The notes under the pieces are model-generated. The model ran no database searches. It was not told where the DNA came from and saw only the letters and a program-made list of their open reading frames with translations. A stretch of 53,656 nucleotides of DNA from an uncultured bacterium (lineage in GTDB: Bacteria > RBG-13-61-14 > DRUE01). Position numbers and translations under genes: made by a program. Below, one piece after another: positions 1,092 to 43,975 of the stretch (position 1 is the stretch's first letter; each line of letters opens with the position of its first letter). The stretch is taken from positions 1-53,656 of the forward strand of contig CAZQJX010000001.1 of NCBI GenBank assembly GCA_964592965.1. Direction: 5' to 3'.

Positions 1092-1093
1092 CT

Positions 1094-1549
1094 TTAGCGG
1101 TCTTTTCTTGCCCAATCATAGGGGATATGGCTCTGATGTGGGTCTATCCTTTCTTCATCAGGCTGGTCGTAGTTATAAAGCTCGGTGGGAATATTCAGAC
1201 AAATGCATTCTGTTTCACTTATGCATTTATATCCGTGCCAGACCATAGCAGGAATTCGCACCAAAAGAGGATTATACTCGCCAATAAAAAATTCATTTAC
1301 CTCACCTTTGGTGGGTGAGTCTTCACGCTCATCATAAAGAACCAGCTTTGCCATTCCTTTAATACAGGTAAAATAATCGTTTTGATTTTTATGCCGATGC
1401 CAGGCTTTTACTACCCCCGGATAAGCAGTGGTAATATATGCTTGACCAAATTTTTCAAAAAACGCATCATCACTGCGAAGCACCTCCATAAGCCTTCCCC
1501 GCTCATCAGGAATGACCCTAAGCCTTTTTATCACTACTCCATCAATCAT
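1094..1549 (-). CDS. Short RmlC-like cupin (dTDP-4-dehydrorhamnose 3,5-epimerase family)
   Basis: VIPDERGRLMEV...KAWHRHKNQNDYF...DSPTKGE pattern of the short epimerase-type cupins. A strong SD (AAGGAGGT) lies 5 nt upstream of the ATG at 1549, so the longer track ORF to 1603 is probably not used. Confidence 0.75.
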   Translation of the reverse strand: MIDGVVIKRLRVIPDERGRLMEVLRSDDAFFEKFGQAYITTAYPGVVKAWHRHKNQNDYFTCIKGMAKLVLYDEREDSPTKGEVNEFFIGEYNPLLVRIPAMVWHGYKCISETECICLNIPTELYNYDQPDEERIDPHQSHIPYDWARKDR

Positions 1550-1559
1550 TTTTACCTCC

Positions 1560-26555: not shown

Positions 26556-27412
26556 AAGGCGAGCTTTTTCTAGTTGCCACTCCCATTGGTAATTTAAAAG
26601 ACATATCTGAGCGGGCAATAGAAAGTTTAAATCAGGCAGATATAATTCTTTGTGAAGACACCCGCAGAACTCGGGCGCTTTTAAGCCATTTAGGAATAAG
26701 AGGCAAAAAGCTCATCAGCTTTAATGAGCACAATCAGGACAGGCGCATTCCGCAAATCCTTGCCCAGCTTGAGCAGGGGAAAAAAATCGCACTGGCAAGC
26801 GATGCTGGCACTCCAGCTATATCTGACCCAGGCGGAAAGCTTGTTGAGCTCGCTCACAAAAAAGGGATAAAAATTACACCCATACCCGGAGCAAGCGCCA
26901 TTACCACTGCTCTGAGCGCTAGCGGATTTCCAGCAGAGCGATTCCTTTTTCTAGGATTCCTTTCTGCAAAAGCCGGCGAGAGAAGAAAACTTTTGGAAAA
27001 ATATAAAGATTTTCCTGAAACAATCGTTATCTTTGAAGCACCGCATAGAATAGAAAAAACCATCAAAGACCTGCTAGATGTGCTCGGCAACAGAGAAGCC
27101 TGTCTTTGCCGAGAGCTCACCAAAGCATTTGAAGAAATCCGACGCACAAACCTAAGCGAGCTTCTTGATCACATAAAAACCAATCCTCCAAAAGGAGAAA
27201 TCACTTTGATTCTTGAAGGAGCTGAAAAAGAAATTTCTTTAGATTTCAATGAATTAGAGAAAAAACTTAAAGATATAATTACAGAAAAGCTAGCTCAGGG
27301 TAAAAAACTTAAAGAAATAGTTGAGGAAATTGCCAAATCTTACGAAATTTCAAAAAATAAAATATACAAGCTTGCTCTGGAGATAAAAAACTCCCTAGAG
27401 AAAAATTCTTAA
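26552..27412 (+). CDS. rsmI: 16S rRNA (cytidine1402-2'-O)-methyltransferase
   Basis: LFLVATPIGNLKDIS, CEDTR, SDAGTPAISDPG and FEAPHR motifs. Confidence 0.9.
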   Translation: MKGELFLVATPIGNLKDISERAIESLNQADIILCEDTRRTRALLSHLGIRGKKLISFNEHNQDRRIPQILAQLEQGKKIALASDAGTPAISDPGGKLVELAHKKGIKITPIPGASAITTALSASGFPAERFLFLGFLSAKAGERRKLLEKYKDFPETIVIFEAPHRIEKTIKDLLDVLGNREACLCRELTKAFEEIRRTNLSELLDHIKTNPPKGEITLILEGAEKEISLDFNELEKKLKDIITEKLAQGKKLKEIVEEIAKSYEISKNKIYKLALEIKNSLEKNS

Positions 27413-28779
27413 CCGGTGCTTTTGCTTTTTGCTAAAAGGGATTGGTAAATTTCAAAAAGCTCATTGTAATGATGGTTAATATCTTTAACTTGCGGGATTC
27501 TTTCAGCTAAAAGTGTTATTTCCTCTGGATTTTTCAGCAAGTGCTCAATTTTTTGGGCAAGGTCTTTTGGGTTGTTTGGTTCAAAAAGCGCTCCTCCGCC
27601 TTTTTCCAAAAGTTCTTTCATTCCGCCAAGGTTGCTGGCAAGGACTGGGGTTTTTGCAAGAAAAGCCTCGTGGATGATGAGCGGAGAGTTTTCATACCAC
27701 AGGCTTGGCACAACCAAAAGGTCAAGCTCGGAAAGGATTTTTGGAACTTGGCTGTGCTCTGCCCTTCCCATCCATTTTATTCTCTGGTCAGCTCCTGCAA
27801 TTTTTTTCAGCCAGCGGACATAACCGGGAAAATCCTCAAGTGCACCGTAAATTCTCAGCTCAAGCTCTTGGCTTTTAATCTGCTTGATTGCCTGAAGCAA
27901 AATGTGCACTCCTTTGTGCGCAACCAGAGTTCCGATGTATCCGAGCACAAGCCTGCCTTTTTCCCTTACCGCTTTCTCAACATAACCTTCAAGCTCAAAG
28001 CCGTAGTCTGAATGAATAATCTTTTTCACTGGAATCATTTTGGAGCTGACCATCATTTGTTTAAGAAAATTACTCGGAGAGATAATAAGGTCAAGTGCAT
28101 CCACAACCTTTTTCATCTCCTGCCATCGCTCTTTGAGCAATTTTTCTTTTTCTTCTAATTTTTGCTTGCGTCCGAGTTTATCCCTCAGCCAATCCACCCA
28201 TTTTGGTGGTAGGGTTCTTTTGATTTTATGAGCCAATCCCAAAGCATATTCAATTGACTTTTGAATTGTGGCTGGGAAACCGCCTGGAATCATTGCGCTC
28301 ATAGAATGTGGGCAACTAATACAGGCAGAAGATTGCTCTGGGTCTGGGCAGGGAACATATTGTGGTTTGAGCATTATAATTGCTGGGCAGATAAGCCAGT
28401 AATCAGCAAGGGTGAGTATGCAGGGAATACCTCTTTTTTTTGCTTTATGCACAAATCCCACGCTGAGCCGAAAAAGATGCTGAAAGTGAATTAGCTCTGG
28501 CTTGAGCTCATCTAGCACTTTGTCAAAGATTTCATCAAAATCTTCTCTTAGATAAGTTGAACGAAAATCTCTTGCGCCTGAATGATAAAGCCGAAAAACT
28601 TTAATTCCCTTGTATTCCTCTTCTTTAAGCTCAAATCCAGGCTGGGAGCGGTCTTCGCTTGTAAATATCCATACCTCGTGCCCTTTTTCGCTGAACTTTT
28701 TTGCTAAAGAATGCGTATAAATCTCTGTTCCTGCCTGATGACGAGGCAAATAGTAATGAACCACATAAAGGATTTTCAT
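27409..28779 (-). CDS. GT4-family (GT-B) glycosyltransferase with a four-Cys insertion
   Basis: MKILYVVHYYLP...GTEIY start and a C-terminal E..P......EA motif (ENSPLIIHEAFLAKTPVLAS). Insertion DYWLICP-x12-C-x8-CxxC at about 28312-28389. This is the last gene of the long operon. Its stop overlaps the rsmI stop (TTAA). Confidence 0.85.
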   Translation of the reverse strand: MKILYVVHYYLPRHQAGTEIYTHSLAKKFSEKGHEVWIFTSEDRSQPGFELKEEEYKGIKVFRLYHSGARDFRSTYLREDFDEIFDKVLDELKPELIHFQHLFRLSVGFVHKAKKRGIPCILTLADYWLICPAIIMLKPQYVPCPDPEQSSACISCPHSMSAMIPGGFPATIQKSIEYALGLAHKIKRTLPPKWVDWLRDKLGRKQKLEEKEKLLKERWQEMKKVVDALDLIISPSNFLKQMMVSSKMIPVKKIIHSDYGFELEGYVEKAVREKGRLVLGYIGTLVAHKGVHILLQAIKQIKSQELELRIYGALEDFPGYVRWLKKIAGADQRIKWMGRAEHSQVPKILSELDLLVVPSLWYENSPLIIHEAFLAKTPVLASNLGGMKELLEKGGGALFEPNNPKDLAQKIEHLLKNPEEITLLAERIPQVKDINHHYNELFEIYQSLLAKSKSTG

Positions 28780-29792
28780 TTTTTTCGCTTAAACAGCTTT
28801 TGGTAAATTTTATAAAAAATAGTTGATTTAACCTTTTGATGAAAATCCTCCAGCTCGGAAACATAAGCTCGCAAATGTTTTATCTCCTCATCTTTGTCTT
28901 TCAAAACTTGCTTGAGCTGGTCAATTTCTTCTGCTAGCTTTTTAAGCTCACCGTGCTTAAAAATTTCCAGCCACATTCGCATTTTTTCATAATCAGGCTC
29001 TTGGTCAGAGGAGATTTTTGCGATAAGGTCATCAAGGGCTGAAGGGTCGTTTTGGAGAAGCGAGCGAGATGCTACTATGAGATGCCTGTATGCAGGCTCT
29101 GATAAATCCTTCCAGAAAAAATGCTGATTGTAAAAGCGAGTAAGCTCATCTCGGATTTTATCTCCGGAAGGAATTCCCTCAAAAAAATAATAGCAAAGCA
29201 TCATAACAATCCAATTCTCAAGTTTTCCATTGGGGATAATGATGGTATCAAAGCCGAGTTTAACCAGCTCTGATTCAGTCTCAAACAAGCTTGGAGAAGC
29301 TATTTCTAAATGCTCCTTTAAATACAAATGCTCCCAGCCAAGCCACTCCTTGATGAAATCAAAAACTAATCTCTCTGCCTGACGAGCCAGCTTGTATTGA
29401 AAAGGAGCTGATATAAGAACCAGCTCCGCACTCACCCGAGCAAGCTCATTAATGGCAGTATTTCGCTCCTCTGGCAAAAGATGCTCCAAAAGGTCAACAC
29501 TAACCACCACCTTAAATGAGCGGTCAGCAAAAGGAAGTGAAAGCGCATTTGCCCGAACCCAGCGGTCTTTTTTCTCTGCAAGAAGGTCAACAATAAAAAG
29601 TGTGCTGGGCGCAAAAAACCTCTCGCCTATGCCAGGATGACCGCCTACTTCAAGTATTTCCGTTTCAGCTGTGCATAATCCCAATCGCTCCAAAACTTCA
29701 GCGCAAAGCCGATACCGCTGATACTGGTCAAAAGGAAAAGATAAAAGCTCTGGGCTGAGATATTTCATATTCAAAATCCTGCTTTTTATCAT
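28776..29792 (-). CDS. Class I SAM-dependent methyltransferase with a C-terminal coiled coil
   Basis: ILEVGGHPG motif I and VVVSVDLLEHL. The last 60 aa or so are heptad-like (LKKLAEEIDQLKQVLKDKDEEIKHLRAYVSELEDFHQKV). Confidence 0.7.
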   Translation of the reverse strand: MIKSRILNMKYLSPELLSFPFDQYQRYRLCAEVLERLGLCTAETEILEVGGHPGIGERFFAPSTLFIVDLLAEKKDRWVRANALSLPFADRSFKVVVSVDLLEHLLPEERNTAINELARVSAELVLISAPFQYKLARQAERLVFDFIKEWLGWEHLYLKEHLEIASPSLFETESELVKLGFDTIIIPNGKLENWIVMMLCYYFFEGIPSGDKIRDELTRFYNQHFFWKDLSEPAYRHLIVASRSLLQNDPSALDDLIAKISSDQEPDYEKMRMWLEIFKHGELKKLAEEIDQLKQVLKDKDEEIKHLRAYVSELEDFHQKVKSTIFYKIYQKLFKRKK

Positions 29793-29793
29793 T

Positions 29794-30375
29794 TTATCGC
29801 TGGCGAATTATCTTTGCAGGAATTCCGACTGCAATGGTATTTTCAGGAATATCATCCAGCACCACGCTTCCAGCACCGATCACAGCTCCTGAGCCAATTT
29901 TCACCCCAGGAAGAACAATTGCTCCTGCGCCTATCCAGACATCATCACCTATTTCTATTGGCTCGCTTATCTGCTCCTGAAGCTGATGAGGCACTCCTCG
30001 CTCAATACCATGATTAGCGCCAATAATCGCCACCCCAGGTCCCAAGCTTACCTTGTTGCCAATACGAATAGGTGCAGAGACCGCACGAATGGTAGAAAAA
30101 CTGCTGGCAACAAAATCATCGCCAATCTCTATCCATTCAAACCCCATAAAAACAACGAATGGCTCCACTCGGGGATTTTTCCCCACCTTCATTCCTTTTT
30201 TGATCGCATACTCAAGGGAATGATGATGAAAAAATCCTGCCCAGCGAATGAGCGCATCTTCAAGCTCAATGATTTGGGGAGAGGTTTTGCGCTCCTTGAC
30301 GATTTGATAAATCCGATTTAAATCAGGGTCGTCCATCAGACGCTTGAAAAACCTGAGCTTGTCAAAAATCCCCAT
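29794..30375 (-). CDS. Left-handed beta-helix (hexapeptide) O-acetyltransferase
   Basis: Hexapeptide repeats IGDDVWIGAGAIVLPGVKIGSGAVIGAGSVV, then the typical IP.NTIAVGIPAKII ending. Confidence 0.8.
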   Translation of the reverse strand: MGIFDKLRFFKRLMDDPDLNRIYQIVKERKTSPQIIELEDALIRWAGFFHHHSLEYAIKKGMKVGKNPRVEPFVVFMGFEWIEIGDDFVASSFSTIRAVSAPIRIGNKVSLGPGVAIIGANHGIERGVPHQLQEQISEPIEIGDDVWIGAGAIVLPGVKIGSGAVIGAGSVVLDDIPENTIAVGIPAKIIRQR

Positions 30376-32125
30376 CTTTTTCCCCCTGAGTTAGATAGGG
30401 TCTTGACCAAAAAGCAACGCACCAGTCATTGGAGCGCTCGGTTTTGGTCTCAAGAATAAGCCCAACCTTTTTCTCTGCAAATTGCCCAAGGTCAACCATA
30501 AAATCATTCCATTTTCTCTCATCAGGATTGTGTTTGGGGTCAAGATAATGAGAAAAAACCACTTTTTCTTTTCCAAGCCTTGTTTTGACTTTTACCAGAT
30601 ACCAGCATCCCTCTCCAGGCTTATCCCATACATCTGGGCTGAAACTAGCTCCAAAAATCAGCTTGGTATGAGGCTTAATCTCAACCTTCCAGCTCACCCT
30701 GCTCGGTGGGTGAATTAAAATGCTCATTCTATCTTTGCCCCTAACTCGTGTGAGCATAATTTGCACATAACCCTCTCCGCCTTCTTTGATTTTAGCCTTG
30801 TCAAAATTGGCGCAAAGGTCATAATAGCCCTTTGCTCGCTTTCTTGCTGACCAAATCCAACCCCATTTGCGGAATTCTTGGAAAAGCTGGTTGAATTTTT
30901 CATCAGAAAGGTCAGGTAATTTTACACGGGGCTGATAGAAAAAAATAGAAGTAGCAGGTCTTTCTAAAAGCAATCCTTCCCGTCTGCATTTTTCATAAAG
31001 CTCAGTGCCAGGAAATGGCTGAAATATAGAAAGAGAAAGATGGTCTGGGTTGAGAAGCCGGTTAAGCTCCATTGTTTTCTTTATGGTCTTTTCATTATCT
31101 CCTGGCACACCCACCATATTCATACTCCAAGTTTCTAGTCCAAGCTCATCTGCCCATTTGAAAAGCTGAATGATTTGTTCATTGGTCATTTTGCGGTTCA
31201 TTACCTCTTTTCTTATCCGCTCATCACCGCTTTCAACGCCGATAAGAATAGAATAAAGCCCGCTTTCTGCCATCAGCTTTAAAAGCTCATAATCAACTGT
31301 TCCCACCCGAACAAAAATCCTCCAAGGAGTGGAAAAATGCTTTTTGTATTCCTGACAGAACTCCACCACCCATTTTCTTGAGCTGGTAAAAACTTCATCC
31401 ATAAACATTAAAGTTTTTAGCTGGGGATATTGCTGGTGAAGAAGTTTTATTTCCGCAAGCATATTCTCAATTGACCTTCTCCTGTGCCACTTACTTACTC
31501 CACCTGCCAGCTGACTTAAAACCGAATTACAGCAATATGTGCAAGCAAAAGGACAGCCCCTGCTTGCCATTACTGTTATTTGATTATCGTTTTCTTCCAG
31601 AAGGCGAGCCTCATCATAAATTTTCCTGTCAGGAAAAGGAAGCTCATCCAGATTAACAGGCGAGCGAAGCGGATTTAGCTTTATCTGATTATTATCCTTA
31701 AAGCCGAGATTTTTTATCCTTTGAAAATCCCTTTCTTTTTCCAGCGCCTCTACCAGCTCAAGTAGAGGAAATTCTCCCTCTCCCCTGATTAAAAAATCAA
31801 AAACATCTTCTTTGAGCACTTCTTCTGGAACAATGGTCGGATGAATTCCGCCGATGACAATGGGAAGACCAAGAGCGGATTTTACTGCCCTAGCATATCT
31901 TTTCACAAATTGATACTGAAGAGTTGAACAGGAAAAGCCGAGCAGGTGGGGAGAGAATTTCTTTACCTCATAAATAAATTCTTCATCTGTTATTTCTTTT
32001 TCAACATACAAAAGCCCAACCTGATGACCGCTTTGCTTGAGAGTTGCACTTATCCAGCCAATTCCGTGCTGGTAATGATAAATCTGACCAGAGCCAATAT
32101 CTGTATATACCAAAAGTATGCGCAT
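30362..32125 (-). CDS. Class B (B12-binding domain) radical SAM enzyme with an extra C-terminal module
   Basis: N-terminal B12-binding-like fold (MRILLVYTD...LLGFSC...VIGGIHPT...IRGEGE), rSAM CPFACTYC, and a C-terminal module of about 123 aa (30365-30733) shared with two other proteins in the operon. Confidence 0.85.
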   Translation of the reverse strand: MRILLVYTDIGSGQIYHYQHGIGWISATLKQSGHQVGLLYVEKEITDEEFIYEVKKFSPHLLGFSCSTLQYQFVKRYARAVKSALGLPIVIGGIHPTIVPEEVLKEDVFDFLIRGEGEFPLLELVEALEKERDFQRIKNLGFKDNNQIKLNPLRSPVNLDELPFPDRKIYDEARLLEENDNQITVMASRGCPFACTYCCNSVLSQLAGGVSKWHRRRSIENMLAEIKLLHQQYPQLKTLMFMDEVFTSSRKWVVEFCQEYKKHFSTPWRIFVRVGTVDYELLKLMAESGLYSILIGVESGDERIRKEVMNRKMTNEQIIQLFKWADELGLETWSMNMVGVPGDNEKTIKKTMELNRLLNPDHLSLSIFQPFPGTELYEKCRREGLLLERPATSIFFYQPRVKLPDLSDEKFNQLFQEFRKWGWIWSARKRAKGYYDLCANFDKAKIKEGGEGYVQIMLTRVRGKDRMSILIHPPSRVSWKVEIKPHTKLIFGASFSPDVWDKPGEGCWYLVKVKTRLGKEKVVFSHYLDPKHNPDERKWNDFMVDLGQFAEKKVGLILETKTERSNDWCVAFWSRPYLTQGEKDGDF

Positions 32126-33150
32126 TATTCTCTCCTCATATAAAGCCCTATGCAGTCATCGCAGGCAGGACTAAAGCCTTTTTTTAGCATATCCTGCTGA
32201 AATTTTCTTGCTATGTCTTTTTGCCAGATTTCATCAAGAGATTCATCATTAAGATTGCCTAAAATCAATGTGGTTGGTTTTTTTGTTTTTTTATCTTTTT
32301 TCAAAAACCTTACAGGATATCCTAATGCACAGCAGGGACTAGCTTCTCCATTGGCTTTGATAAAAATCTGGTCAATGGGAAAAACCCCGCATCCCCACTG
32401 CCTTTCTTTATGCACCTTTTCAGGGAAAATAACCTCAAGCTCTCCTTTAAATTCCAAGGCAATATCATTGATAAGTTGAAAGAGCGCATCATCAGAAAAA
32501 TCAATATCATAATAGCCTGAATAGGTAATTTCATCTAGGTCTTTGGGAGAAAAAACACCGCCCATCTGCTGAAATAAAATTCCGTCCATTCCCCATTCTA
32601 GCATCTTCTGGGCAAAGGGCTTTAGGTCAAAAAGATAGGATTTTTGCAAAAGGTAGCTGGCATAAATTTTGGGCTTTTTTAGTCCGAGCTGATTTCTTCT
32701 TTTTAGCAAGCTTTTAATTTCTTTTTCTATTTTATCCCAGAACCTTCCTCTTCGCTTTTCATAAACAGCTTTACAAGAAGCATCTATAGAAAAGCAAATA
32801 ACATCCACCTGATTTTCAATAATGGAATTGATTTTTTCTTGGTCAAGTAAAATGCCATTTGAGGTAAAGCTCAAGGTTTGAGAAAACTGAGAGCGAATGA
32901 GCCTGAGCGCTCTTGCAAATTCAGGATGCATAAGAGGCTCGCCCCAGCCAGTAAGGTCAATAGTTTTTAGCTTAGAGATTTGGGGAAGGATTTTTCTAAG
33001 CAGTTCCATTTGCATATTTTGATTTTTGCCTGCACCTTCCCAAGCATTTCTCAGGCAGAACCTACAGGAAAGATTGCAATAACTGGAAAGCTCAAGATTA
33101 ACTGCCCGAAGCTTGGTTAAAGCTTGCGAGTTTTTTTGAGAAAAACTCAT
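32125..33150 (-). CDS. Radical SAM enzyme with a SPASM/twitch-like C-terminal Cys domain
   Basis: CNLSCRFC at residues 25-32. C-terminal WGC-x18-CC ... CDDC. The start overlaps the upstream stop (ATGA) and the stop overlaps the downstream start (TAATG). Confidence 0.8.
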   Translation of the reverse strand: MSFSQKNSQALTKLRAVNLELSSYCNLSCRFCLRNAWEGAGKNQNMQMELLRKILPQISKLKTIDLTGWGEPLMHPEFARALRLIRSQFSQTLSFTSNGILLDQEKINSIIENQVDVICFSIDASCKAVYEKRRGRFWDKIEKEIKSLLKRRNQLGLKKPKIYASYLLQKSYLFDLKPFAQKMLEWGMDGILFQQMGGVFSPKDLDEITYSGYYDIDFSDDALFQLINDIALEFKGELEVIFPEKVHKERQWGCGVFPIDQIFIKANGEASPCCALGYPVRFLKKDKKTKKPTTLILGNLNDESLDEIWQKDIARKFQQDMLKKGFSPACDDCIGLYMRRE

Positions 33151-34199
33151 TCAAATCCACCTCGCAAAAACTCGCTGATGCTCAAAGAATCTCCCAGAGA
33201 ACAGCTCAAACCGCATTTTGGGCAAAGTTGTTTTTGGATTCTTTTCCTTAGCTCCCTAGTAGTTTTGCTCTTCCAGAATTTTTCTGCAGAGACCTGCAAG
33301 AAATTTACCTTTTGCCAGTTGGAAGAAAGCGGGCAGGGAATCCAGCTTCCATCAGAATCAATGACCACTGTTGAATAAAGGCTTAAGCATCTTCTAGTGC
33401 GTCTTTTTCCGCTTAGAATTGAAATCAGGCTTTTATAATGACTTTTATAACCAGCTGGTAGCTTGTTGATAATTTCTTTCAAAAACTCAATGACTGCCTG
33501 CTTTTCGTCTGGAGAAAGGCTTAAGCTTTGAGCAAGCTCTATGTTGCTGTAATACTGGTCCGTTATCTCCACCAGATTAAAAGTTATGCTGGCGCTTTGG
33601 CTTTGGGCAAATTCAAAAATCTCTTTTAGCTGAAAATAATTTCCCTTTTGAATTACGCAGTTAAATCCCAGCTCCAGCCTGTGGCAGGGGAATTCTTCTT
33701 TTAATTTTTTAAACCTGTCTATTGTTTTAATAAGGTTTTCAAAAGCATCTTCTTTTCCACGAATTTTATTATGAGGCTCGCCAATACCATCAAGAGAGAG
33801 ATGAAGAAAAAATCCCTGTTTAGCTGGATTTAGCTTTTGGAGCATCTCTCGGCATCTTAAAATAATTCGCTCCGAATTATAGCCATTGCTTGCCATACCT
33901 AGTATCTGCATTTTGGGAAGGCTTTGATTAAAAACCTCTGTCAGCTCTGCTAAATCTTTGCGCAGGCTCGGCTCCCCGCCAGAAAGCCAGACCACCTCTA
34001 TTTTTTGAAAAAGTTTATTCTTTAAAAGTTCTCTAAGCTCATCTGAGCTAAGCTCTATCTTTTTTTCTGACTTCCATACTCCGCAATGCTGGCAGGCAAG
34101 GTCGCATCGCCGAGTGGGATTGAAAATAAAAAATCTGGGCAGGGGAATAAAAATTCTTCCTGCTCCATAATAAAAAGCAATTTTTACAAGGTCATTCAT
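33147..34199 (-). CDS. Radical SAM enzyme with a SPASM/twitch-like C-terminal Cys domain
   Basis: CDLACQHC. C-terminal RRC-x17-C ... CPKCGLSC. The start is placed at the ATG at 34199, 2 nt after the upstream stop. The track ORF begins at a TTG at 34253 and would overlap by 62 nt. Confidence 0.75.
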   Translation of the reverse strand: MNDLVKIAFYYGAGRIFIPLPRFFIFNPTRRCDLACQHCGVWKSEKKIELSSDELRELLKNKLFQKIEVVWLSGGEPSLRKDLAELTEVFNQSLPKMQILGMASNGYNSERIILRCREMLQKLNPAKQGFFLHLSLDGIGEPHNKIRGKEDAFENLIKTIDRFKKLKEEFPCHRLELGFNCVIQKGNYFQLKEIFEFAQSQSASITFNLVEITDQYYSNIELAQSLSLSPDEKQAVIEFLKEIINKLPAGYKSHYKSLISILSGKRRTRRCLSLYSTVVIDSDGSWIPCPLSSNWQKVNFLQVSAEKFWKSKTTRELRKRIQKQLCPKCGLSCSLGDSLSISEFLRGGFE

Positions 34200-37078: not shown

Positions 37079-37079
37079 C

Positions 37080-37277
37080 TTAGATATGATGCTTCATAAA
37101 GTTCGCTATTGAGCGGTCCCAAGTTGCCTCACCCTCTTTGGTAAAAAAGCAGGCAGGTAGTTCCTTCATTCGCAGATGATAGCGAATGCACTCACAGCAA
37201 ATGCCTTTTCGCTCGCATGGCTCATAAGTGCAGTTGCAGAACTTGAGATTCTTCTCTTTGTTTTTGCACTCTATCAT
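37080..37277 (-). CDS. Small (65 aa) 8-cysteine protein, probably a metal or Fe-S binding accessory protein
   Basis: MIECKNKEKNLKFCNCTYEPCERKGICCECIRYHLRMKELPACFF... A strong SD (AAGGAGGTG) lies 5 nt upstream, and there is a 1-nt gap to the next gene. The CNCTYEPC..KG.CCEC..YH...LPACFF pattern resembles a conserved small Cys-rich DUF family, which I remember as DUF6485 (unverified). Confidence 0.7.
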   Translation of the reverse strand: MIECKNKEKNLKFCNCTYEPCERKGICCECIRYHLRMKELPACFFTKEGEATWDRSIANFMKHHI

Positions 37278-37300
37278 CTTTACACCTCCTTAAAGATTTT

Positions 37301-38746
37301 TTATGGATGACGAAGAGCTTTTTTTTCTATTTTCTTCTCAATAGCGCTGAGGAATCTTCTTTTAAAATCTATGGTTTTAGTCTGAGCTTTTGAGATAATT
37401 CTCGGTTCCGCCCATCCCACCCATCCATATTTTATCTCATTACTTTTGGTGATTAAATCCAGCCAGATTTTTTTGCCTGCCCAGTTTTTTAGCTCCAGCT
37501 CAAAATCCTGCCAGCTGGTAAAAACATCTTTTTTGGGCACAATGCGCTTTTTAAAGATTAACTCACCTTGCACTGCTACCATAAAATCAACTGGCTGGCT
37601 TCGCTTTAGCCATACTTTGGGATTAAATCCCAAGCTGAATTTAAAAACAGGCTGGCTGGGAAGGGTTAATTGAAAACTTATCATTGCTGGTGGATTGGCA
37701 AAAATCACCCTTTGCCAGCGCTCCCCTACAACAAAAGCGGTTTTAAATACTCGCTTTTTAGCATCTTTTGGATAAATATGAGCTTTTTTGAAAAGCTCAA
37801 GCAAAGATATATAAGAATCAGGTAGAAATGTTTTGCTGGCTAGGTATCTTCCAAGCATCTCCGCTCCCTTATAAAATGGCTCGCATATTCCTGCCCATAA
37901 TTTTTTTTGAAAAGGCTCTTCAAAATTCTCAAGTTCTTTTACAAAGGAATAGCTATCTTTAAAAAAAGCCCGACAAACTTCCTTCAAATCAGGATAATAA
38001 ATTGCTCCGAAATATTTGCCAGCTATTTTTTGGTCAATCCAGCCACGCTTGAACAGGTATAAAACATTGGGCTGGTGGCTATGATAAACCACAGAATCAG
38101 GACAGAAGGCGATTTTGTATCCAGCAAAAAGACAGGCTTTGCTCCAAAGCAAATCCTCTGCCCACTCCACACTTGGAATGGGAATTTTATCAAGAACATC
38201 TTTTCGCCGAAGTGAGCTCACATCATCAAAATCGCAAAACAAAATCCGCTCAATTGGCTCCAGCTTGTGGTATTGCATTAAATCTTTAAGCTCAGAGATA
38301 GCCGGTTGGTTTGAGTAAGCCTTTCTTTTCTTCAGCCGAACCTTTTCTGAAATCGTGGCATTTTCTCGGGGAAGTTGCCTGCTGTATGTTCCTGCGATTT
38401 TCTCATCTTTAAGAGCTGGCTTTACAAGATTAATCAGCCAGTATTCATTGGCAGGAAAAGCATCTGCTACCAGATAAACTAAAAATTCTCCTTGAGCCAA
38501 TTTAGAAGCATAAGCTCGGGTTGCGCCATGAGAAAAACTTTCTCTTGATACCTCAATTAAGCGAACAGAATGATTTTTAGCAAACCAGCGGACAATTTCA
38601 ACGGTCTGGTCAGAAGAGCCAGAATCCACCACCAAAACCTCATAGGCAAAATCTGTTTTCTGATTTAAAACCCTTTCTAGACAGGTCTTGATATTCTTTT
38701 CTTCATTAAGGGTAGGAATGATTATGCTGACCTTCGGCTCCATCAT
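37301..38746 (-). CDS. GT2-family (GT-A) glycosyltransferase with an extra C-terminal module
   Basis: VSIIIPTLNEE...VLVVDSGSSDQT...LVADAFP in the GT-A N-terminal half. The C-terminal module (about 37394-37717) is homologous to the tails of both class B rSAM proteins. Confidence 0.85.
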   Translation of the reverse strand: MMEPKVSIIIPTLNEEKNIKTCLERVLNQKTDFAYEVLVVDSGSSDQTVEIVRWFAKNHSVRLIEVSRESFSHGATRAYASKLAQGEFLVYLVADAFPANEYWLINLVKPALKDEKIAGTYSRQLPRENATISEKVRLKKRKAYSNQPAISELKDLMQYHKLEPIERILFCDFDDVSSLRRKDVLDKIPIPSVEWAEDLLWSKACLFAGYKIAFCPDSVVYHSHQPNVLYLFKRGWIDQKIAGKYFGAIYYPDLKEVCRAFFKDSYSFVKELENFEEPFQKKLWAGICEPFYKGAEMLGRYLASKTFLPDSYISLLELFKKAHIYPKDAKKRVFKTAFVVGERWQRVIFANPPAMISFQLTLPSQPVFKFSLGFNPKVWLKRSQPVDFMVAVQGELIFKKRIVPKKDVFTSWQDFELELKNWAGKKIWLDLITKSNEIKYGWVGWAEPRIISKAQTKTIDFKRRFLSAIEKKIEKKALRHP

Positions 38747-39801
38747 TCTAACAGCTCAGCATTAAACCAAGGACTGCGAGATTCAACAAGGCAAAGCTGA
38801 CAATAATTAGGATACTTCCCTTGTGAAATCCTTTTTCTTGCCTCTTTATATTTATCCCCGTTCCATATCTGCTCAAACCCTGCTTCTTTTAATGTGCCCA
38901 TAAATTCTGCGGTTCCACAGCAAAGAAAAATTCTTCCATTGGTTCTTACTCCAAAATTTATCCAGGGTTGAGGGCATCGCTTGATGCGCTTTTTTCCTTC
39001 CAAATATGTGCTGGTAAAGATTAATCTTTTGCCAAGAGCATCCTTTTTGAGATTTTCAAGCCTGCTCATCAACTCGGCATCAGCGGGAACATAATTCTTT
39101 TGAAAAAAATCCTGATACTTTGCATCAAAGCTGAAAATCGGACTGAGAGGTTCAACCACCAGATGATTTATACCCAAAGAGCTGGCGAATTCTACCACCT
39201 TATCCAGCTCTTTTAGATTCTCTTTGAAAAGCGTAAATTGCATATTAAGATAGGGCTTTGATTTTCCCTGTTTTTTCTTTTCCTCATCAAGCAGTTTAAT
39301 AGCCTCTACCACCTGCTCCAGCTCAGCCCCTCTGCGAATTCTCCGATAGGTATCTGGATTTATTGCATCAATGGAAAATGAAAGGCAGTCTAGCTCAAGC
39401 TCAACCAGTTCCTTTGCGCAGGCAGAATCAATTAAAGTTCCATTGGTATTTAAAATTACCTCCAGCTTAAGCTGTTTTACCTCTTTTGCCAGCTCAAAAA
39501 ACTTTGGATGCAAAAAAGGCTCACCACCACCGCTTAAAAAGCATCTTTGAGCATATTCCAAAACAGGTTTGAGCCTTTGGATAAAATCAAGGTCTAAAAA
39601 TTTCTCCTCATACTGATACTCGCTAACTCCCATTGCCACAGGACACATTGGACAGGAAAGATTGCACACGCTGGTTGCTTCAAGATAAACCACCAGCGGA
39701 AAATGTTTAACTTTTACTTTGCCTTTTTTCCAGGCTATCTGCGCCTGTTTTTTGTTCCAAGCTTTTTTCTCTAAAAGAGAGCTTTTAGCAAAAAAAATCA
39801 T
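38743..39801 (-). CDS. Radical SAM enzyme with a SPASM/twitch-like C-terminal Cys domain
   Basis: CNLSCPMC at residues 46-53. C-terminal KRC-x17-CC ... CQLC. Lies 3 nt after the wzt stop. Confidence 0.8.
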   Translation of the reverse strand: MIFFAKSSLLEKKAWNKKQAQIAWKKGKVKVKHFPLVVYLEATSVCNLSCPMCPVAMGVSEYQYEEKFLDLDFIQRLKPVLEYAQRCFLSGGGEPFLHPKFFELAKEVKQLKLEVILNTNGTLIDSACAKELVELELDCLSFSIDAINPDTYRRIRRGAELEQVVEAIKLLDEEKKKQGKSKPYLNMQFTLFKENLKELDKVVEFASSLGINHLVVEPLSPIFSFDAKYQDFFQKNYVPADAELMSRLENLKKDALGKRLIFTSTYLEGKKRIKRCPQPWINFGVRTNGRIFLCCGTAEFMGTLKEAGFEQIWNGDKYKEARKRISQGKYPNYCQLCLVESRSPWFNAELLE

Positions 39802-39804
39802 CTT

Positions 39805-41052
39805 TTAACTTATCTTCCAGCTTGCTTTGGGAATAAATACGCCTCGGTCAATAACCTTTGGGCTCTGCACCTCAAAACGAACCACATCAAAAACCTCATC
39901 AACGCACGCGCAGGCACCGCTTTTTCCTCTAAAAATATTCACTGATAGCTGATACCTTGCCGGTAAAAGCTCGTTTTGAAATTTATAGCTCACTTTGCCC
40001 TTATGACCAGCTGATATTTTCTCTGGCAAATCTATTTCAACTTTTTGACCAAATTCAGAAGCAAGCTGAGCACATTCCTGATTGGTGCTCAAAATCAAAA
40101 CCCCATCACTGCGGAAAATGTTAATCCCAAAGAGCAAATCACTAATATCCTTTTTAACCTCATATTCAAACTCTATCTCCACCTCCTCTCCGGTTTTGAA
40201 GACATAAACTTCTTCTCCCAAAGAATTCTTCATCTTTACAGATACCACCCTTGCCTCTCCTGTGCCTCTTCTTTTCCATTCACCTTCTTTTCTCTCCTCT
40301 CTCAACGCCTCTTGATAAATATCTTCCAGATAAGCAGATAAAACATCGTCTATCTTTCCCTGCGCGTAAATTCTACCTTCTTTTAAATAAATTCCACGCT
40401 CGCACAAACCCCGAATCATTGTTAAATCATGCGAGGCAATTATTAAAGTTTTTCCTTGCTCCTTCATCTCTAGCATTCTCCGCAGGCATTTGGAGCGAAA
40501 ATGCTCATCACCAACTGCCAGCGCCTCATCAATCAAAAAAATATCTGGCTCAAGCGCCTGTGCAAGGGAAAACCCCAAGCGAAGATACATTCCATCAGAA
40601 TAGGTGCGAACAGGAAGGTCAATAAAATCCCCCAGCTCAGAGAATTCTATCATCTGCTGAATTTTTTCATCTAGTTCTTTTGATGAAAAGCCTGCAATCA
40701 TTCCATTCAGCCTAAGATTTTCTCTCCCAGTAAATTCAGGATGAAAACCGCTTCCCAGCTCCAAAAGCGTAGCAAGCCTACCTAAAATCCCTATTTTACC
40801 TTTGGTAGGTGGACTAATTCCTGCTAGCACTTTAAGAAGAGTGGTTTTACCAGCGCCGTTTCTTCCCACAATTCCAAAGCACTCTCCTTTTTTGACTTCA
40901 AAGCTTACATCCCTAAGCGCCACCACCTGACAATGATATTTTCTTTTACCAAGTAAAATCCGCTCATAAAGCCAATGTCTGGGCTTGGTATATACCTTAA
41001 AGACCTTCCAGAGCTCGCTCGCTTTAACAGCTACCTCAGACACGGTCTGCAA
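39805..41052 (-). CDS. wzt: Glycan-export ABC transporter ATPase (Wzt/TagH type) with a C-terminal beta-sandwich extension
   Basis: GRNGAGKTTLLK Walker A, YSDGMYLRLGFS signature, IDEALAVGD Walker B. A C-terminal domain of about 155 aa (39805-40278) begins WKRRGTGEARVVSV, like the Wzt carbohydrate-binding domains. Confidence 0.85.
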   Translation of the reverse strand: MQTVSEVAVKASELWKVFKVYTKPRHWLYERILLGKRKYHCQVVALRDVSFEVKKGECFGIVGRNGAGKTTLLKVLAGISPPTKGKIGILGRLATLLELGSGFHPEFTGRENLRLNGMIAGFSSKELDEKIQQMIEFSELGDFIDLPVRTYSDGMYLRLGFSLAQALEPDIFLIDEALAVGDEHFRSKCLRRMLEMKEQGKTLIIASHDLTMIRGLCERGIYLKEGRIYAQGKIDDVLSAYLEDIYQEALREERKEGEWKRRGTGEARVVSVKMKNSLGEEVYVFKTGEEVEIEFEYEVKKDISDLLFGINIFRSDGVLILSTNQECAQLASEFGQKVEIDLPEKISAGHKGKVSYKFQNELLPARYQLSVNIFRGKSGACACVDEVFDVVRFEVQSPKVIDRGVFIPKASWKIS

Positions 41053-41884
41053 ACCCCTTTTTCAAGCGGTTGAAAATCCAAAAGCCTAAAACAAGAGAAA
41101 CAGCCATCATCGCTGTAAGAAAAACCACTGATTTTAATTCTGGCAAACTTTTTTCCAGCAAAAGCCTTCTGTATCCTTCTACAAGATGTGCCATTGGATT
41201 GAGCCAGATAAATATCTGGAATTTAGCAGGAACCATATTAGCAGGATAAAATATTGGCGTGGCATACATCCAAACTAAAAGTAGCACTGGCACCAGTTGA
41301 ATAATATCCCTTACCCAAACGCTGAGCCCTGAAATAAGATACCCCAGTCCCAAGCCAAAGCCCAGTTGAACCAAAATCCAAACAAAAACTAAAACCAAGC
41401 CCAAAAAACTCAGTTTTCCTTTAAAACCCGCCCATAAAATTAAAACCAAAAATCCAATCACCTGCCCGCAAAGACCGCTTAAAACAGGAACCGCAGGAAG
41501 AATACCAACTGGAAATTTAACTCTGCTGATGAGGTTGCGATGCTCAATAAGATAACTACCTGCTCTAATTAATCCTTCTTGAAACCCTAGCCAAGGGATA
41601 AGTCCGCAAAGAATATAAAGAGCACTTATTCCAACACCTTTTTCAGCACCGAATTTTGCCTGAAAAACTATGGCAAAGATAAAGGTGAAAATAAGAAGCA
41701 ATAAAAGCGGATGAATAACTGTCCAGAAAATTCCAATCAGGCTTCCAACATACTTACTGCGCAAATCCCGCTCAACCATTCGCCAAAGCAGGCGCCAGTT
41801 TGTCTTCCAGCTAGCCACACCCTTTAATAACCTATCATTTATTTTTGCAAAGATAAAATCTTTTAGCTTAAATTTTTGAGACAC
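41036..41884 (-). CDS. wzm: ABC-2 type glycan-export permease
   Basis: Six-TM ABC-2 profile. The 3' end overlaps the wzt start by 17 nt. Confidence 0.85.
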   Translation of the reverse strand: MSQKFKLKDFIFAKINDRLLKGVASWKTNWRLLWRMVERDLRSKYVGSLIGIFWTVIHPLLLLLIFTFIFAIVFQAKFGAEKGVGISALYILCGLIPWLGFQEGLIRAGSYLIEHRNLISRVKFPVGILPAVPVLSGLCGQVIGFLVLILWAGFKGKLSFLGLVLVFVWILVQLGFGLGLGYLISGLSVWVRDIIQLVPVLLLVWMYATPIFYPANMVPAKFQIFIWLNPMAHLVEGYRRLLLEKSLPELKSVVFLTAMMAVSLVLGFWIFNRLKKGFADRV

Positions 41885-41915
41885 TTATGAGCAAATTAGT
41901 TCCGAGCAGGCTTTT

Positions 41916-42373
41916 TCAAAACAGCAAAAAGCGAAACTCCAAAGCCAAGTTTGGCTCGTTGGCTTCTTCCCTGCCAAATAAAAGCCTCAAGCAAAATCTT
42001 ATTGAAGAGCTTTGAAGGAGGGGGTCTTCCAATCGCCTGCTTTTGCTAATTTTCAACTTGGTGCGAAGTTTGCGACAAACAAGAATAGGAAAGAAAGCCA
42101 GCGAGTTCACATAATACTTAAAAAATCAAATATCCTGAACCATAAAATACTTTCTCCAAAGATTTCCAAAACCAACCGTTGGAGCAAAAAGATTCTAAGC
42201 TAGCTTAAATCCCATACACCGATATAGGGTGGTAGGTGATAATGCTTCCACACCCAAACACCGTAGCAATAAATAGCTTGGTCAGCTCTTAATCCAAACC
42301 AAATGGTAAGCTATAAATTAAATGCACTAATTATTAAGCTCGGAATAAAAAATTTTGCCTGAAAAATTTTCAC
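41916..42373 (-). pseudogene. Decayed, truncated tandem paralogue of the upstream GT-C (ArnT/PMT-like) glycosyltransferase gene
   Basis: The minus-strand frame starting at the GTG at 42371-42373 reads VKIFQAKFFIPSLIISAFNL*LTIWFGLRADQAIYCYGVWVWKHYHLPPYIGVWDLS*LRIFLLQRLVLEIFGESILWFRIFDFLSIM*. This aligns with residues about 5-95 of the intact neighbour (...FWLALIAGGIFLLPSLWFGFTMDQAVGAYVAWVWKKYHLVPYVGAWDLSFPGMYIVHRLALEIFGESILGFRLFDFLAQL...). In-frame stops lie at 42311-42313, 42200-42202 and 42107-42109. A frameshift follows (NSLAFFPILVC against SSLAGFFSSIFY), and everything beyond about 150 codons is lost. Confidence 0.8.
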
Positions 42374-42376
42374 CCC

Positions 42377-43975
42377 TTACTCCTGCTCTATCTTTTCTGC
42401 ATCCTGCTTCAAAACATACACCTCAATTCCTTCTACCTCTCCCACCCTGCGATAATTTTTCAGCAAAAATTCTTTTAGCTTTGGAAAATATTTGTTTAGA
42501 ATTTCGCTCAGATAAGGGCTGGGAAGAGCAAACACTTCCCAGCCTGGAATTTGTTTGGCAAGCAGAAAGAATTTGGGACGGGATTTAATAACATCTCGTG
42601 TATATTCCTCAATCCATTTTTTCTGCTGACCAGTAAGCCCGTATCTGCCTGCCCCGATAAAAAGATGGTATATCACGCAGAATCTGCTTGGAAGTTTCTT
42701 TTTTAAAAGATAAGGCACAATCGGATGCCAGCCAAAAAATTCTATTTCGTCATCTCTGCCAATAAATCGTTTCAAATACTTGACTGCGCGATAGTAGCGG
42801 GCATCATAACTATTTCCTAAAGAATATGCTACATCCAACTTTCGAAAACTCGCTTTAATAAAAAAATTGTAAAGTTGGGGATGAATTCCGCCCAGAAAAA
42901 TTATCACTAAAACTAAAAGATAAAGAGTGGCTTTTGAAAGAATCAGCTTGACCTGCTCCTGCAAATACTCAGCAAGCTTTACCAGACCACCACCAGCAAA
43001 AAGCATCATCATTCCCCAAAAAGGAATTGAATGATAGTAAAAATACTTCCCCTGAACAAAAAAAGAAAACAAACCTATGAGCATAAAAACAATTGCTATC
43101 CAGAAAAGCGACCTGCTCTTCTGCTCCCTTCCAGCAAATACTATTCCTAAAATTCCCAAAAAGAATAAAATCTGAAAGCGTGAAAGAATAGCATAAAATC
43201 CTGCCAGAAGCTGAATTAATAAAGACCCTGCAAAAGGATTTGTCCGACCATAAACTTTAAAACCATACCAAAGGGTAGCAAAGTATAACTCCCGCAGAGC
43301 GCCCTTATCTGCATAATAAGCAATCACCAGCAAGCTGGGAACAAGGCAGAAAATCCCAAAAACACCTGCCAAAAGCCAAGAGCGAGGTTGAGCCTTTTCT
43401 TTGGCTAAAAACCAAATTGCCAAAACCAGCCAGCTTAGCCCATAAAAAGGCTTTAATAAAAAAGCAAAGCCAAGCGCAAGACCGCTTAACACAGCAAGAA
43501 CAATTCTTTGCCTGTTCAGCCCGACTATCAAAACCAAGCAGAAAAGAAAAAGCAAAAGAACATACCCATCTTTTTCTGCTGTTTCCAAAGCTCCACCACT
43601 TACATAATAAACTGCATAAAAAATTGAAGAGAAAAATCCAGCCAAGCTTGAGCTGAAAAGTTCTCTGGCAAGATAAAAAATCATTCCCAGCACGCTTAGC
43701 TGAGCAAGGAAATCAAATAAACGAAATCCTAAAATGCTCTCTCCAAATATCTCCAGAGCCAGCCGATGAACAATATACATTCCAGGAAAGCTTAAATCCC
43801 AAGCGCCAACATAAGGCACTAAATGATATTTCTTCCACACCCAAGCAACATAAGCACCAACTGCTTGGTCCATTGTAAATCCGAACCAGAGGCTCGGAAG
43901 CAAAAAAATCCCGCCAGCTATTAGCGCAAGCCAAAAATAGCGGTCTTGATAAAATGGCTTTGAAAAGCTACTCAC
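42377..43975 (-). CDS. Polytopic GT-C fold membrane glycosyltransferase (ArnT/PMT/GT39-like)
   Basis: 532 aa with about 12 TM segments, an acidic residue in the first periplasmic loop (FTMDQAVG) and a soluble C-terminal tail. The family call rests on architecture rather than a strict motif. Confidence 0.6.
   Translation of the reverse strand: MSSFSKPFYQDRYFWLALIAGGIFLLPSLWFGFTMDQAVGAYVAWVWKKYHLVPYVGAWDLSFPGMYIVHRLALEIFGESILGFRLFDFLAQLSVLGMIFYLARELFSSSLAGFFSSIFYAVYYVSGGALETAEKDGYVLLLFLFCLVLIVGLNRQRIVLAVLSGLALGFAFLLKPFYGLSWLVLAIWFLAKEKAQPRSWLLAGVFGIFCLVPSLLVIAYYADKGALRELYFATLWYGFKVYGRTNPFAGSLLIQLLAGFYAILSRFQILFFLGILGIVFAGREQKSRSLFWIAIVFMLIGLFSFFVQGKYFYYHSIPFWGMMMLFAGGGLVKLAEYLQEQVKLILSKATLYLLVLVIIFLGGIHPQLYNFFIKASFRKLDVAYSLGNSYDARYYRAVKYLKRFIGRDDEIEFFGWHPIVPYLLKKKLPSRFCVIYHLFIGAGRYGLTGQQKKWIEEYTRDVIKSRPKFFLLAKQIPGWEVFALPSPYLSEILNKYFPKLKEFLLKNYRRVGEVEGIEVYVLKQDAEKIEQE

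Follow-up and report, generated by a model that had tools for sequence, protein, structure and literature searches.

A Wzm/Wzt glycan-export operon with six embedded radical-SAM genes

We analyzed a 53,656-nucleotide contig from an uncultured bacterium of the GTDB lineage RBG-13-61-14; DRUE01 (CAZQJX010000001.1, assembly GCA_964592965.1), and we refer to this whole stretch of DNA as the window. On its minus strand, 14 genes run from position 41884 down to position 27409, and in this string the genes of an ATP-binding cassette (ABC) exporter for glycans, wzm and wzt, stand together with six genes for radical S-adenosylmethionine (radical-SAM) enzymes. A first-pass annotation, made from the sequence without database searches, had proposed a glycan-export operon of this kind, and Pfam scans bear the proposal out. 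Every domain call for the operon proteins, as well as for a GT-C fold glycosyltransferase encoded upstream, lies above its gathering cutoff, and the ATPase carries a carbohydrate-binding domain (CBD). We use the names SP1 to SP4 for the four radical-SAM/SPASM proteins and B12a and B12b for the two B12-binding radical-SAM proteins. The genes are listed from the 5' end of the operon; type A loci are the closest related loci, defined below, and CBM stands for carbohydrate-binding module.

41036..41884, minus strand: Wzm, ABC-2 permease (ABC2_membrane PF01061, 60.5 bits; cutoff, 26.9; orthologs 57-71% identical in type A loci)
39805..41052, minus strand: Wzt, ATPase with a C-terminal CBD (ABC_tran PF00005, 73.6 bits; Wzt_C PF14524, 72.6 bits)
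38743..39801, minus strand: SP1, radical-SAM/SPASM protein with the motif CNLSCPMC and five conserved C-terminal cysteines (PF04055, 82 bits; PF13186, 38.9 bits; cysteines conserved in 9/9)
37301..38746, minus strand: GT2 glycosyltransferase (Glycos_transf_2 PF00535, 80.9 bits), with a predicted CBM-like beta-sandwich at residues ~315-456 (window 37379-37804)
37080..37277, minus strand: DUF6485 protein of 65 amino acids with eight invariant cysteines (PF20095, 45.6 bits)
35288..37078, minus strand: B12a, class-B radical-SAM protein (B12-binding PF02310, 68.9 bits; PF04055, 87.8 bits), with a C-terminal beta-sandwich at residues ~445-596 (window 35291-35746)
34192..35301, minus strand: SP2, radical-SAM/SPASM protein with seven conserved C-terminal cysteines (PF04055, 80.8 bits; PF13186, 39.5 bits)
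33147..34253, minus strand: SP3, radical-SAM/SPASM protein (PF04055, 66.8 bits; PF13186, 25.9 bits)
32125..33150, minus strand: SP4, radical-SAM/SPASM protein (PF04055, 51.4 bits; PF13186, 46.5 bits; best NCBIfam match TIGR04317, 166.8 bits; cutoff, 380)
30362..32125, minus strand: B12b, second class-B radical-SAM protein (PF02310, 68.2 bits; PF04055, 83.9 bits), with a C-terminal beta-sandwich at about window 30386-30832
29794..30375, minus strand: LbH, left-handed beta-helix (hexapeptide) acyltransferase (Hexapep PF00132, 56.4 bits; orthologs 52-76% identical in type A loci)
28776..29792, minus strand: MT, SAM-dependent methyltransferase with a Lys/Glu/Leu-rich C-terminal tail (Methyltransf_11 PF08241, 31.8 bits)
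27409..28779, minus strand: GT4 glycosyltransferase, last gene of the operon (PF13692, 100 bits; Glycos_transf_1 PF00534, 97 bits; Glyco_transf_4 PF13439, 50 bits; orthologs 53-60% identical)

The gene coordinates of the first-pass annotation match our list of open reading frames (ORFs), and the junctions, recomputed from that list and from our own translations, range from -62 to +23 nt. On the exporter side they measure -17 (wzm/wzt), +3 (wzt/SP1), -4 (SP1/GT2), +23 (GT2/DUF6485), and +1 nt (DUF6485/B12a); from B12a onward, -14 (B12a/SP2), -4 (SP3/SP4), -1 (SP4/B12b), and -14 nt (B12b/LbH); and at the 3' end, +1 (LbH/MT) and -4 nt (MT/GT4). The description of 14 tightly packed genes is confirmed. 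The largest overlap is that of SP2/SP3, which amounts to 62 nt when SP3 is started at its first TTG and to 8 nt when it is started at ATG 34199. The overlap is likewise 8 nt in the orthologous locus L001, and ATG 34199 is probably the true start of SP3. Consensus scans of the operon detected no internal promoters or terminators above the shuffled background (26 terminator-like sites, against 20 ± 4.4 expected), which makes a single transcript of the 14 genes plausible.

The exporter is a normal member of the Wzm/Wzt family in which the ATPase bears a CBD. Wzt residues 9-397 align full length, CBD included, with Wzt of Aquifex aeolicus (8dku; E 1.9e-76), and 7k2t is matched at E ~1e-76. Like the ABC-transporter-dependent O-antigen systems of Escherichia coli O9a, Klebsiella O12, and A. 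aeolicus (PMC9445017), the operon unites Wzm, a CBD-bearing Wzt, GT2 and GT4 glycosyltransferases, and a methyltransferase. It differs from those systems in holding six radical-SAM genes, in the additional CBM-like domain that its GT2 has in common with radical-SAM enzymes, and in having no recognizable WbdD-type kinase/methyltransferase terminator and no initiating transferase or ligase. No initiating polyprenyl-phosphate transferase (PF00953 or PF02397) was found among the window ORFs scanned, from which a few short ORFs were left out; such genes are often encoded elsewhere.

The two cytoplasmic glycosyltransferases, GT2 and GT4, lie with the exporter in one overlapping gene string. Distant homologs of the GT2 catalytic domain (30-39% identity) often adjoin wzm/wzt and GT4 genes, and this places GT2, as far as its relatives indicate, in a glycan-assembly lineage. 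MT is a possible candidate for a chain-terminating cap enzyme. WbdD has a coiled-coil ruler, which the Lys/Glu/Leu-rich tail of MT resembles without sequence support, and Pfam gives a weak, sub-threshold coiled-coil match to MT residues 284-320. A sequence search of the PDB returned no relative of MT; we therefore set aside the idea that MT is a WbdD homolog and keep it as an architectural analogy only.

The radical-SAM enzymes

All six radical-SAM proteins retain an intact CxxxCxxC motif, and the motifs appear in our own translations exactly as first reported. B12a and B12b have class-B architecture, in which an N-terminal B12-binding domain precedes a radical-SAM core containing CPFDCTYC (B12a) or CPFACTYC (B12b), and they are 36% identical to one another over their full length. 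SP1 to SP4 have SPASM architecture, with PF13186 scores of 25.9-46.5 bits against a cutoff of 21.5. Across 9-10 orthologs, the invariant C-terminal cysteines number seven in SP2, five each in SP1 and SP4, and five in SP3, where a further invariant cysteine is found at C199. The mutual identity of SP1 to SP4 is only 20-27% (blastp), and this low sequence identity implies that the four proteins have four different jobs.

All six proteins stay below cutoff for every NCBIfam model. For SP1 and SP4 the best models are TIGR04317 (a putative "tungsten cofactor oxidoreductase maturase"; 147-167 bits against 380) and TIGR04311. B12a and B12b score 154-170 bits with the HpnJ model (cutoff, 577.6) and 80-85 bits with the AprD4 family (cutoff, 500), and ApyD, a radical-SAM enzyme of ribosomally synthesized and posttranslationally modified peptides (RiPPs), is among the best matches of B12a (143-156 bits against 750). 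The hopanoid models HpnH and HpnB give 34-55 bits against 225 and 32 bits against 379, respectively. Among the SPASM families, the scores are 67 bits for NirJ1 (cutoff, 650), 41-47 for PqqE (381), 30-48 for MftC (265), and 27.5 for the anaerobic sulfatase-maturase (anSME) model TIGR03942 (349). With all scores this far below cutoff, the SPASM proteins stand outside the anSME, PQQ, and mycofactocin families, membership in which the first-pass annotation had named as an argument against its own proposal.

The solved structure closest to both B12a and B12b is AprD4 (6fd2; E 2e-20 and 8e-18), the sugar diol-dehydratase of apramycin biosynthesis. Many class-B radical-SAM enzymes are C-methylases; AprD4 is, by its NCBIfam name, a dehydratase and not a methylase. 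The solved relatives of SP1 to SP4 are all remote and comprise GDGT-MAS, viperins, MoaA, CteB, SkfB, BtrN, and BlsE. The core of SP2 comes nearest to MoaA (TIGR02666, 83.9 bits; cutoff, 284; structure 1tv7, E 1e-8), and SP1, SP2, and SP4 give weak matches to viperin-type, nucleotide-acting enzymes. Taken by their domains and scores, the six proteins are members of the class-B and SPASM/twitch superfamilies that lie outside the curated subfamilies.

Three kinds of known system offer comparisons. AprD4, BtrN, GenK/GenD1, BlsE, and DesII act on carbohydrate C-H bonds and occur singly or in pairs in actinomycete small-molecule antibiotic clusters. Beyond the relationship of B12a and B12b to AprD4, the likeness to these enzymes extends to BtrN and BlsE, which are distant matches of SP4 and SP2, whereas here six radical-SAM enzymes occur together with Wzm/Wzt, all score below the cutoff of the AprD4 family, and a beta-sandwich is added in two of them. 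Mycofactocin biosynthesis likewise combines a SPASM radical-SAM enzyme (MftC), an oligosaccharide-forming GT2 (MftF), and a methyltransferase (MftM), and the operon has weak matches to all three (47.6, 42.5, and 32.3 bits against cutoffs of 265, 280, and 200). Unlike that pathway, it has no equivalents of MftA, MftB, MftD, or MftE, and it has B12-binding radical-SAM enzymes and Wzm/Wzt. Hopanoid cyclitol ether and calditol arise in two stages, in which a glycosyltransferase attaches a sugar to a lipid and a radical-SAM enzyme afterward reshapes that sugar; for HpnJ, the proposed substrate is the glucosamine head group added by the GT2 enzyme HpnI (PMC13459092). The operon resembles HpnI/HpnK/HpnJ and the calditol synthase Cds in pairing a GT2 with a B12-domain radical-SAM enzyme, and HpnJ is among the best NCBIfam matches. 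It differs in falling far below the HpnJ cutoff, in its four additional SPASM enzymes and CBM-like domain, and in having a polymer exporter rather than a hopanoid pathway. No squalene-hopene cyclase (shc) or hpn genes were present among the window ORFs scanned.

A shared beta-sandwich and a conserved core cassette

The last ~150 residues of GT2, B12a, and B12b are homologous (blastp of GT2 against B12a, 9e-5; against B12b, 7e-7), and the motifs HPPxR, FG..P.VW, DPK, W.DF.vDL..WaGK, and W..P align across the three proteins. A profile of this region (A2) recovered GT2 at 2.4e-40 and B12b at 3.2e-54 (hmmsearch), and in every related locus it matches GT2 and the B12-binding radical-SAM protein or proteins but no neighboring gene. 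In the Pfam scans, the region was left uncovered by the best-matched stretch of any family listed, and a profile comparison revealed no relationship with Wzt_C or the Wzt CBD. AlphaFold2 models the C-terminal domain of B12a as an all-beta jelly roll with high confidence (predicted local distance difference test [pLDDT], 94.8; predicted template modeling [TM] score, 0.90). When this model was compared with the PDB using Foldseek, CBMs stood at or near the top, among them the porphyran-binding CBM 8xmz (E 8.9e-6; TM 0.56/0.62) and the CBM51 structure 2vmg (TM 0.61/0.66), and further matches were to CBM4, CBM6, CBM35, and the Fbs sugar-recognition domain. The modeled fold is thus similar to that of solved CBMs.

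Among 1.84 billion representative proteins, a profile search identified 3836 members of the beta-sandwich family, 1797 of them at E <= 1e-10. In a sample of 54 members, the fusion partners were TPR (~11), PMT_2/GT-C (10), Phosphodiest (7), Sulfatase (6), radical SAM (5), GT4 (1), and YfhO (1), that is, to judge from the domain assignments, overwhelmingly enzymes of envelope glycoconjugates. Because of these partners and its CBM-like fold, the domain may be a substrate-docking module that brings GT2, B12a, and B12b to the same glycan. The best-scoring carriers (P0246-P0319) belong to a large unannotated family; they are 1000-1200 amino acids long and have two copies of the domain, often together with TPR repeats and PMT_2.

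Homologs of B12a that bear the beta-sandwich fall into ~55 sequence clusters, all from metagenomes or metagenome-assembled genomes, and far more homologs, of ~470 amino acids, lack the domain. An exact-sequence search with the B12a gene of the window gave no match, although the B12a protein is present among the sequences searched for homologs. The loci of the domain-bearing homologs show two arrangements. Type A has the order wzm-wzt-SP1-GT2-DUF6485-B12a-SP2-SP3-SP4-B12b-LbH-MT-(GT4) and is found in the window, L001/L090, L092, L093, L100, L101, and L083/L095, and in part on the truncated contigs L096, L102, and L089. It thus recurs on ~9 further metagenomic contigs at 37-82% protein identity (GT2 down to 37%), with the lowest values (37-57%) in L083. 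Type B has the order (SP1)-GT2-DUF6485-B12a-SP2-SP3-SP4 and is found in L002, L084, L099, L143, and L168; B12b is restricted to the wzm/wzt-linked, type A loci. Since the same gene order is kept on independent contigs at such divergence, the linkage of the radical-SAM genes to wzm/wzt is conserved within one clade and not a chance juxtaposition. The co-occurrence noted by the first-pass annotation therefore stands for this clade, but the core cassette also occurs without the exporter. On this comparison, the evolutionarily stable unit consists of GT2, DUF6485, a B12-binding radical-SAM enzyme, and three SPASM enzymes, with or without SP1, and B12b, LbH, MT, GT4, and the exporter look like an add-on to this GT2-centered cassette.

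The most conserved gene of the cassette is the smallest. DUF6485 is 71-82% identical among loci, against 31-65% for the enzymes, and it was not detected in L099. The first-pass annotation had described it as an eight-cysteine miniprotein; the eight cysteines are indeed invariant, but the family to which the protein belongs is widespread and has members in unrelated contexts as well. Its 582 homologs, which are 60-89% identical, are stand-alone proteins of 63-70 amino acids from Desulfobacca, Desulfobacteraceae, Omnitrophota, Nitrospinota, Saganbacteria, and one Thermoplasmatota archaeon, and elsewhere the gene adjoins those for glycogen synthase (L086) and transketolase (L087). In a further locus (L088, 7834-10192), genes for a btuFCD-like importer lie upstream, and DUF6485 comes directly after those for a cob(I)alamin adenosyltransferase and a CbiA-like amidase. 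Such neighbors are a hint of some link to cobalamin; the gene that comes next after DUF6485 in the window encodes a B12-binding radical-SAM protein. A sequence search of the PDB found no related solved structure, our literature search found no paper naming the family, and the AlphaFold model, being of low confidence (pLDDT 61.6), was left out of the fold search. Its wide distribution, high conservation, and unrelated contexts make a role as a RiPP precursor unlikely for DUF6485. The protein is more likely a small, Cys-ligated metalloprotein with an accessory function as a redox partner or metal donor.

Other relatives of B12a lie outside the cassette. In a scan of GTDB species with the B12a alignment, the matches listed were mostly distant class-B radical-SAM proteins (32-43%) in unrelated contexts; among them, only one locus of Planctomycetota (L003) and one of Bdellovibrionota (L004) carry the beta-sandwich, and neither has the cassette. 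These two loci represent a different type of cluster, with three tandem paralogs each that combine a B12-binding radical-SAM protein with the beta-sandwich (L003, 4531-9918; L004, 5129-10589), outside any cassette of GT2, DUF6485, and SPASM genes. In L085 (10001-21899), a B12-binding radical-SAM protein with the beta-sandwich (632 amino acids) is followed by a GT2; a SPASM radical-SAM gene lies nearby, as does a gene for a protein of >1670 amino acids made of repeated methyltransferase domains.

Two features lie immediately upstream of the operon, the second of them between the GT-C gene and wzm:

42377..43975, minus strand: GT-C fold membrane glycosyltransferase of 532 amino acids (PMT_2 PF13231, 41.1 bits; cutoff, 26.1)
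42116..42364, minus strand: decayed duplicate of the GT-C N terminus (tblastn to GT-C residues 9-91, 52% identity, E 4e-25, two in-frame stops)

The pseudogene remnant noticed in the first-pass annotation is accordingly a broken copy of its neighbor. The same annotation counted GT-C as the 15th gene of the locus; the gene is present, but none of the related loci, type A or type B, has an ortholog of it.

The window, at ~40% G+C, is otherwise ordinary chromosome, with mreB/mreC, PBP2, a sigma-70 factor, fpg, ksgA, and tsaD. The nearest named homologs of PBP2 (in Nitrospinota, Thermodesulfobacteriota, and Geobacteraceae) are only 43-46% identical, which points to a deep lineage known only from metagenomes. 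Two adjacent radical-SAM genes of the CofH/MqnC type (futalosine-route menaquinone; 18780-20875, minus strand) are unrelated to the operon and bring the count in the window to eight; a UbiA prenyltransferase gene (25659-26555, plus strand) lies a few kilobases from them. We considered UbiA and TP_methylase genes that lie by the operon and are kept in L001, and we judged them unrelated and housekeeping-like (a prenyltransferase near the futalosine-pathway radical-SAM genes and an RsmI-like methylase). Between the menaquinone radical-SAM genes and the sigma-70 gene lie a PocR sensory-domain protein and an Arf-like small GTPase with a weak Pfam match of 29 bits (20933-22308, minus strand). At 81-3441 (minus strand), 24 kb from the operon, a 4,6-dehydratase, a cupin-type dTDP-sugar isomerase, a SAM methyltransferase, and a sugar-1-phosphate nucleotidyltransferase are encoded in a small nucleotide-sugar cluster, which could supply a donor sugar. 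At 46418-47240 (plus strand) only the C-terminal part of a sulfatase is present (SGSH_C, 188-amino-acid ORF), behind an overlapping ORF of 96 amino acids, and the gene is probably truncated or frameshifted. A 748-amino-acid protein with a spermine/spermidine-synthase domain in its middle (48208-50454, minus strand) adjoins a GT2 (47278-48312) and an FG-GAP repeat protein (44918-46390).

Interpretation and alternative explanations

On balance, and with modest confidence, we favor the explanation that the system tailors an exported (lipid-linked) glycan or glycoconjugate by radical chemistry. We infer the substrate, the chemical steps, the role of DUF6485, and the capping step as follows. GT2 and GT4 would assemble a lipid-linked glycan on the cytoplasmic side of the membrane, and the CBM-like beta-sandwich would dock GT2, B12a, and B12b onto it. 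B12a and B12b could then perform radical chemistry on sugar carbons, either C-methylation or a dehydration or ring rearrangement like those of AprD4, HpnJ, and calditol synthase. SP1 to SP4 may add further radical steps (oxidation, epimerization, deoxygenation, or C-C bond formation) with either the polymer or a nucleotide-sugar donor as substrate; the MoaA- or viperin-like cores of SP2, SP1, and SP4 make nucleotide-linked substrates conceivable. Our confidence in any specific reaction of these enzymes is low. DUF6485 would be an accessory of the radical enzymes rather than their substrate, supplying them with electrons or metal, for example. LbH and MT may add O-/N-acyl and methyl groups. The CBD of Wzt recognizes a modified O-antigen terminus (PMC9445017), and since the Wzt of the operon carries such a domain, one of these groups may be a terminal cap and export signal. 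Wzm/Wzt would export the finished glycan, and the upstream GT-C, though lineage-specific, could act on the product in the periplasm.

A more detailed proposal, which we regard as possible rather than probable, is that the B12-binding enzymes are recruited to the nascent lipid-linked glycan by the CBM-like domain, which is also present on the polymerizing GT2. Together with the four SPASM enzymes and the DUF6485 metalloprotein, they would introduce C-methyl, deoxy, or carbocyclic sugars into the polymer itself prior to export, and the cassette would act as a mobile module for the radical editing of glycans, joined to different export routes in different lineages.

Several observations weigh against the favored explanation. 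The beta-sandwich is a generic jelly roll, with TM scores of 0.5-0.6 and <=15% identity to its Foldseek matches, and ephrin-receptor ligand-binding domains match it equally well, so that sugar binding is putative. Besides an initiating polyprenyl-phosphate transferase and a ligase, the operon also lacks a nucleotide-sugar gene. SPASM-type enzymes most often act on peptides. The whole claim stands on sequence, structure prediction, and synteny, and every homolog of the cassette comes from an uncultured organism known only as sequence. Finally, the type B loci have no wzm/wzt within 8-10 kb. A TRAP-type dctP gene lies directly upstream of SP1 in four loci without wzm/wzt (L084, 6061-7200; L168, 4906-5934; L143, 7863-8870; L094, 3-728), the copies being 71-84% identical to each other, with no DctQ/M partner gene visible in L084 or L168. 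In L099 a gene of the major facilitator superfamily (MFS_3) directly follows SP4, and a sulfatase lies upstream.

These surroundings would also fit a small-molecule product. The core cassette might make a radically remodeled sugar, nucleotide-sugar, glycoside, or cofactor-like compound that the glycan operon incorporates or co-opts and that is served elsewhere by an MFS or TRAP component. We consider this unlikely, though it gains from the lack of B12b, LbH, MT, and GT4 in type B loci, from the MoaA- and viperin-like character of SP1, SP2, and SP4 described above, and from the fact that AprD4 acts on a small aminoglycoside. Against it, a beta-sandwich suited to docking a polymer or ligand is kept on GT2 and the B12-binding enzyme in type B loci too, GT2 is always part of the core, and in the clade of the window the cassette is translationally coupled to wzm/wzt. 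A small-molecule product would, moreover, overlap with the tailoring of an exported glycan rather than exclude it. The separability of cassette and exporter in evolution is also the one point that speaks for a chance juxtaposition of an unrelated O-antigen-type exporter cluster and a radical-SAM cluster, which the first-pass annotation had named as a case that would undo its proposal. We rate this as highly improbable, given that wzt, SP1, and GT2 are joined by junctions of 3 and 4 nt, that the fused order is kept in ~9 further contigs down to 37-57% identity, and that B12b, LbH, MT, and GT4, present in type A alone, lie on the far side, so that the cassette is bracketed by glycan genes.

The position of a small, Cys-rich gene directly upstream of B12-binding radical-SAM and SPASM genes invites a RiPP-like scheme, in which DUF6485 would be the substrate that SPASM enzymes cross-link, the B12-binding enzymes methylate, GT2 glycosylates, and the ABC transporter exports. 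Peptide maturation is a typical task of SPASM enzymes, B12a has ApyD among its best NCBIfam matches, and MftF, MftC, and MftM are weakly matched. Such a role is nonetheless improbable for a protein that is 60-89% identical across phyla and in a Thermoplasmatota archaeon, that occurs singly beside glycogen synthase, transketolase, and cobalamin genes, that is more conserved than any cassette enzyme, and that is undetected in L099. The radical-SAM cores begin at residues 25-50, leaving no room for a RiPP recognition element (RRE), Pfam finds no PqqD/RRE or peptidase domain in the operon proteins, a Wzm/Wzt pair with a CBD is a glycan exporter, and all family scores are far below cutoff. The SPASM enzymes could instead be maturases of a sulfatase or another metalloenzyme (anSME-like or tungsten/metalloenzyme maturase-like). 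The best NCBIfam models of SP1 and SP4 are both putative metalloenzyme maturases, three sulfatases flank the cassette in L168, sulfatases flank it also in L099 and L169, and the sulfatase fragment of the window lies at 46674-47240. We give this very little weight: the scores of 147-167 bits compare with cutoffs of 380-400, and that of the anSME model is lower still relative to its own; no sulfatase lies inside any version of the operon, nearby sulfatases have no beta-sandwich, and the type A loci shown have no adjacent sulfatase.

The first-pass annotation did not recognize this combination as a described system, and our literature search, which returned irrelevant matches only, agrees: it found no paper describing radical-SAM enzymes with a Wzm/Wzt glycan operon, C-methylation of a polysaccharide, or a cobalamin radical-SAM enzyme with a glycan. 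Within the literature searched, then, three things are undescribed, namely, six radical-SAM enzymes in an ABC-transporter-dependent glycan operon, a portable cassette of GT2, DUF6485, a B12-binding enzyme, and three SPASM enzymes, and an unannotated CBM-like domain that links GT2 to cobalamin radical-SAM enzymes.

The diversity of surface polysaccharides is generally attributed to conventional transferases, epimerases, and nucleotide-sugar pathways, and, to our knowledge, nearly all radical-SAM chemistry described on sugars belongs to small-molecule antibiotics or lipid head groups. The operon gives access to the beta-sandwich domain (3836 representative clusters) and to DUF6485, both of them unannotated families, and would offer new enzymes for glycan engineering. 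If the proposal is true, radical chemistry extends to cell-surface glycans, and the operon predicts unusual sugars, whether C-methylated, deoxygenated, or carbocyclic, in uncultured anaerobes.

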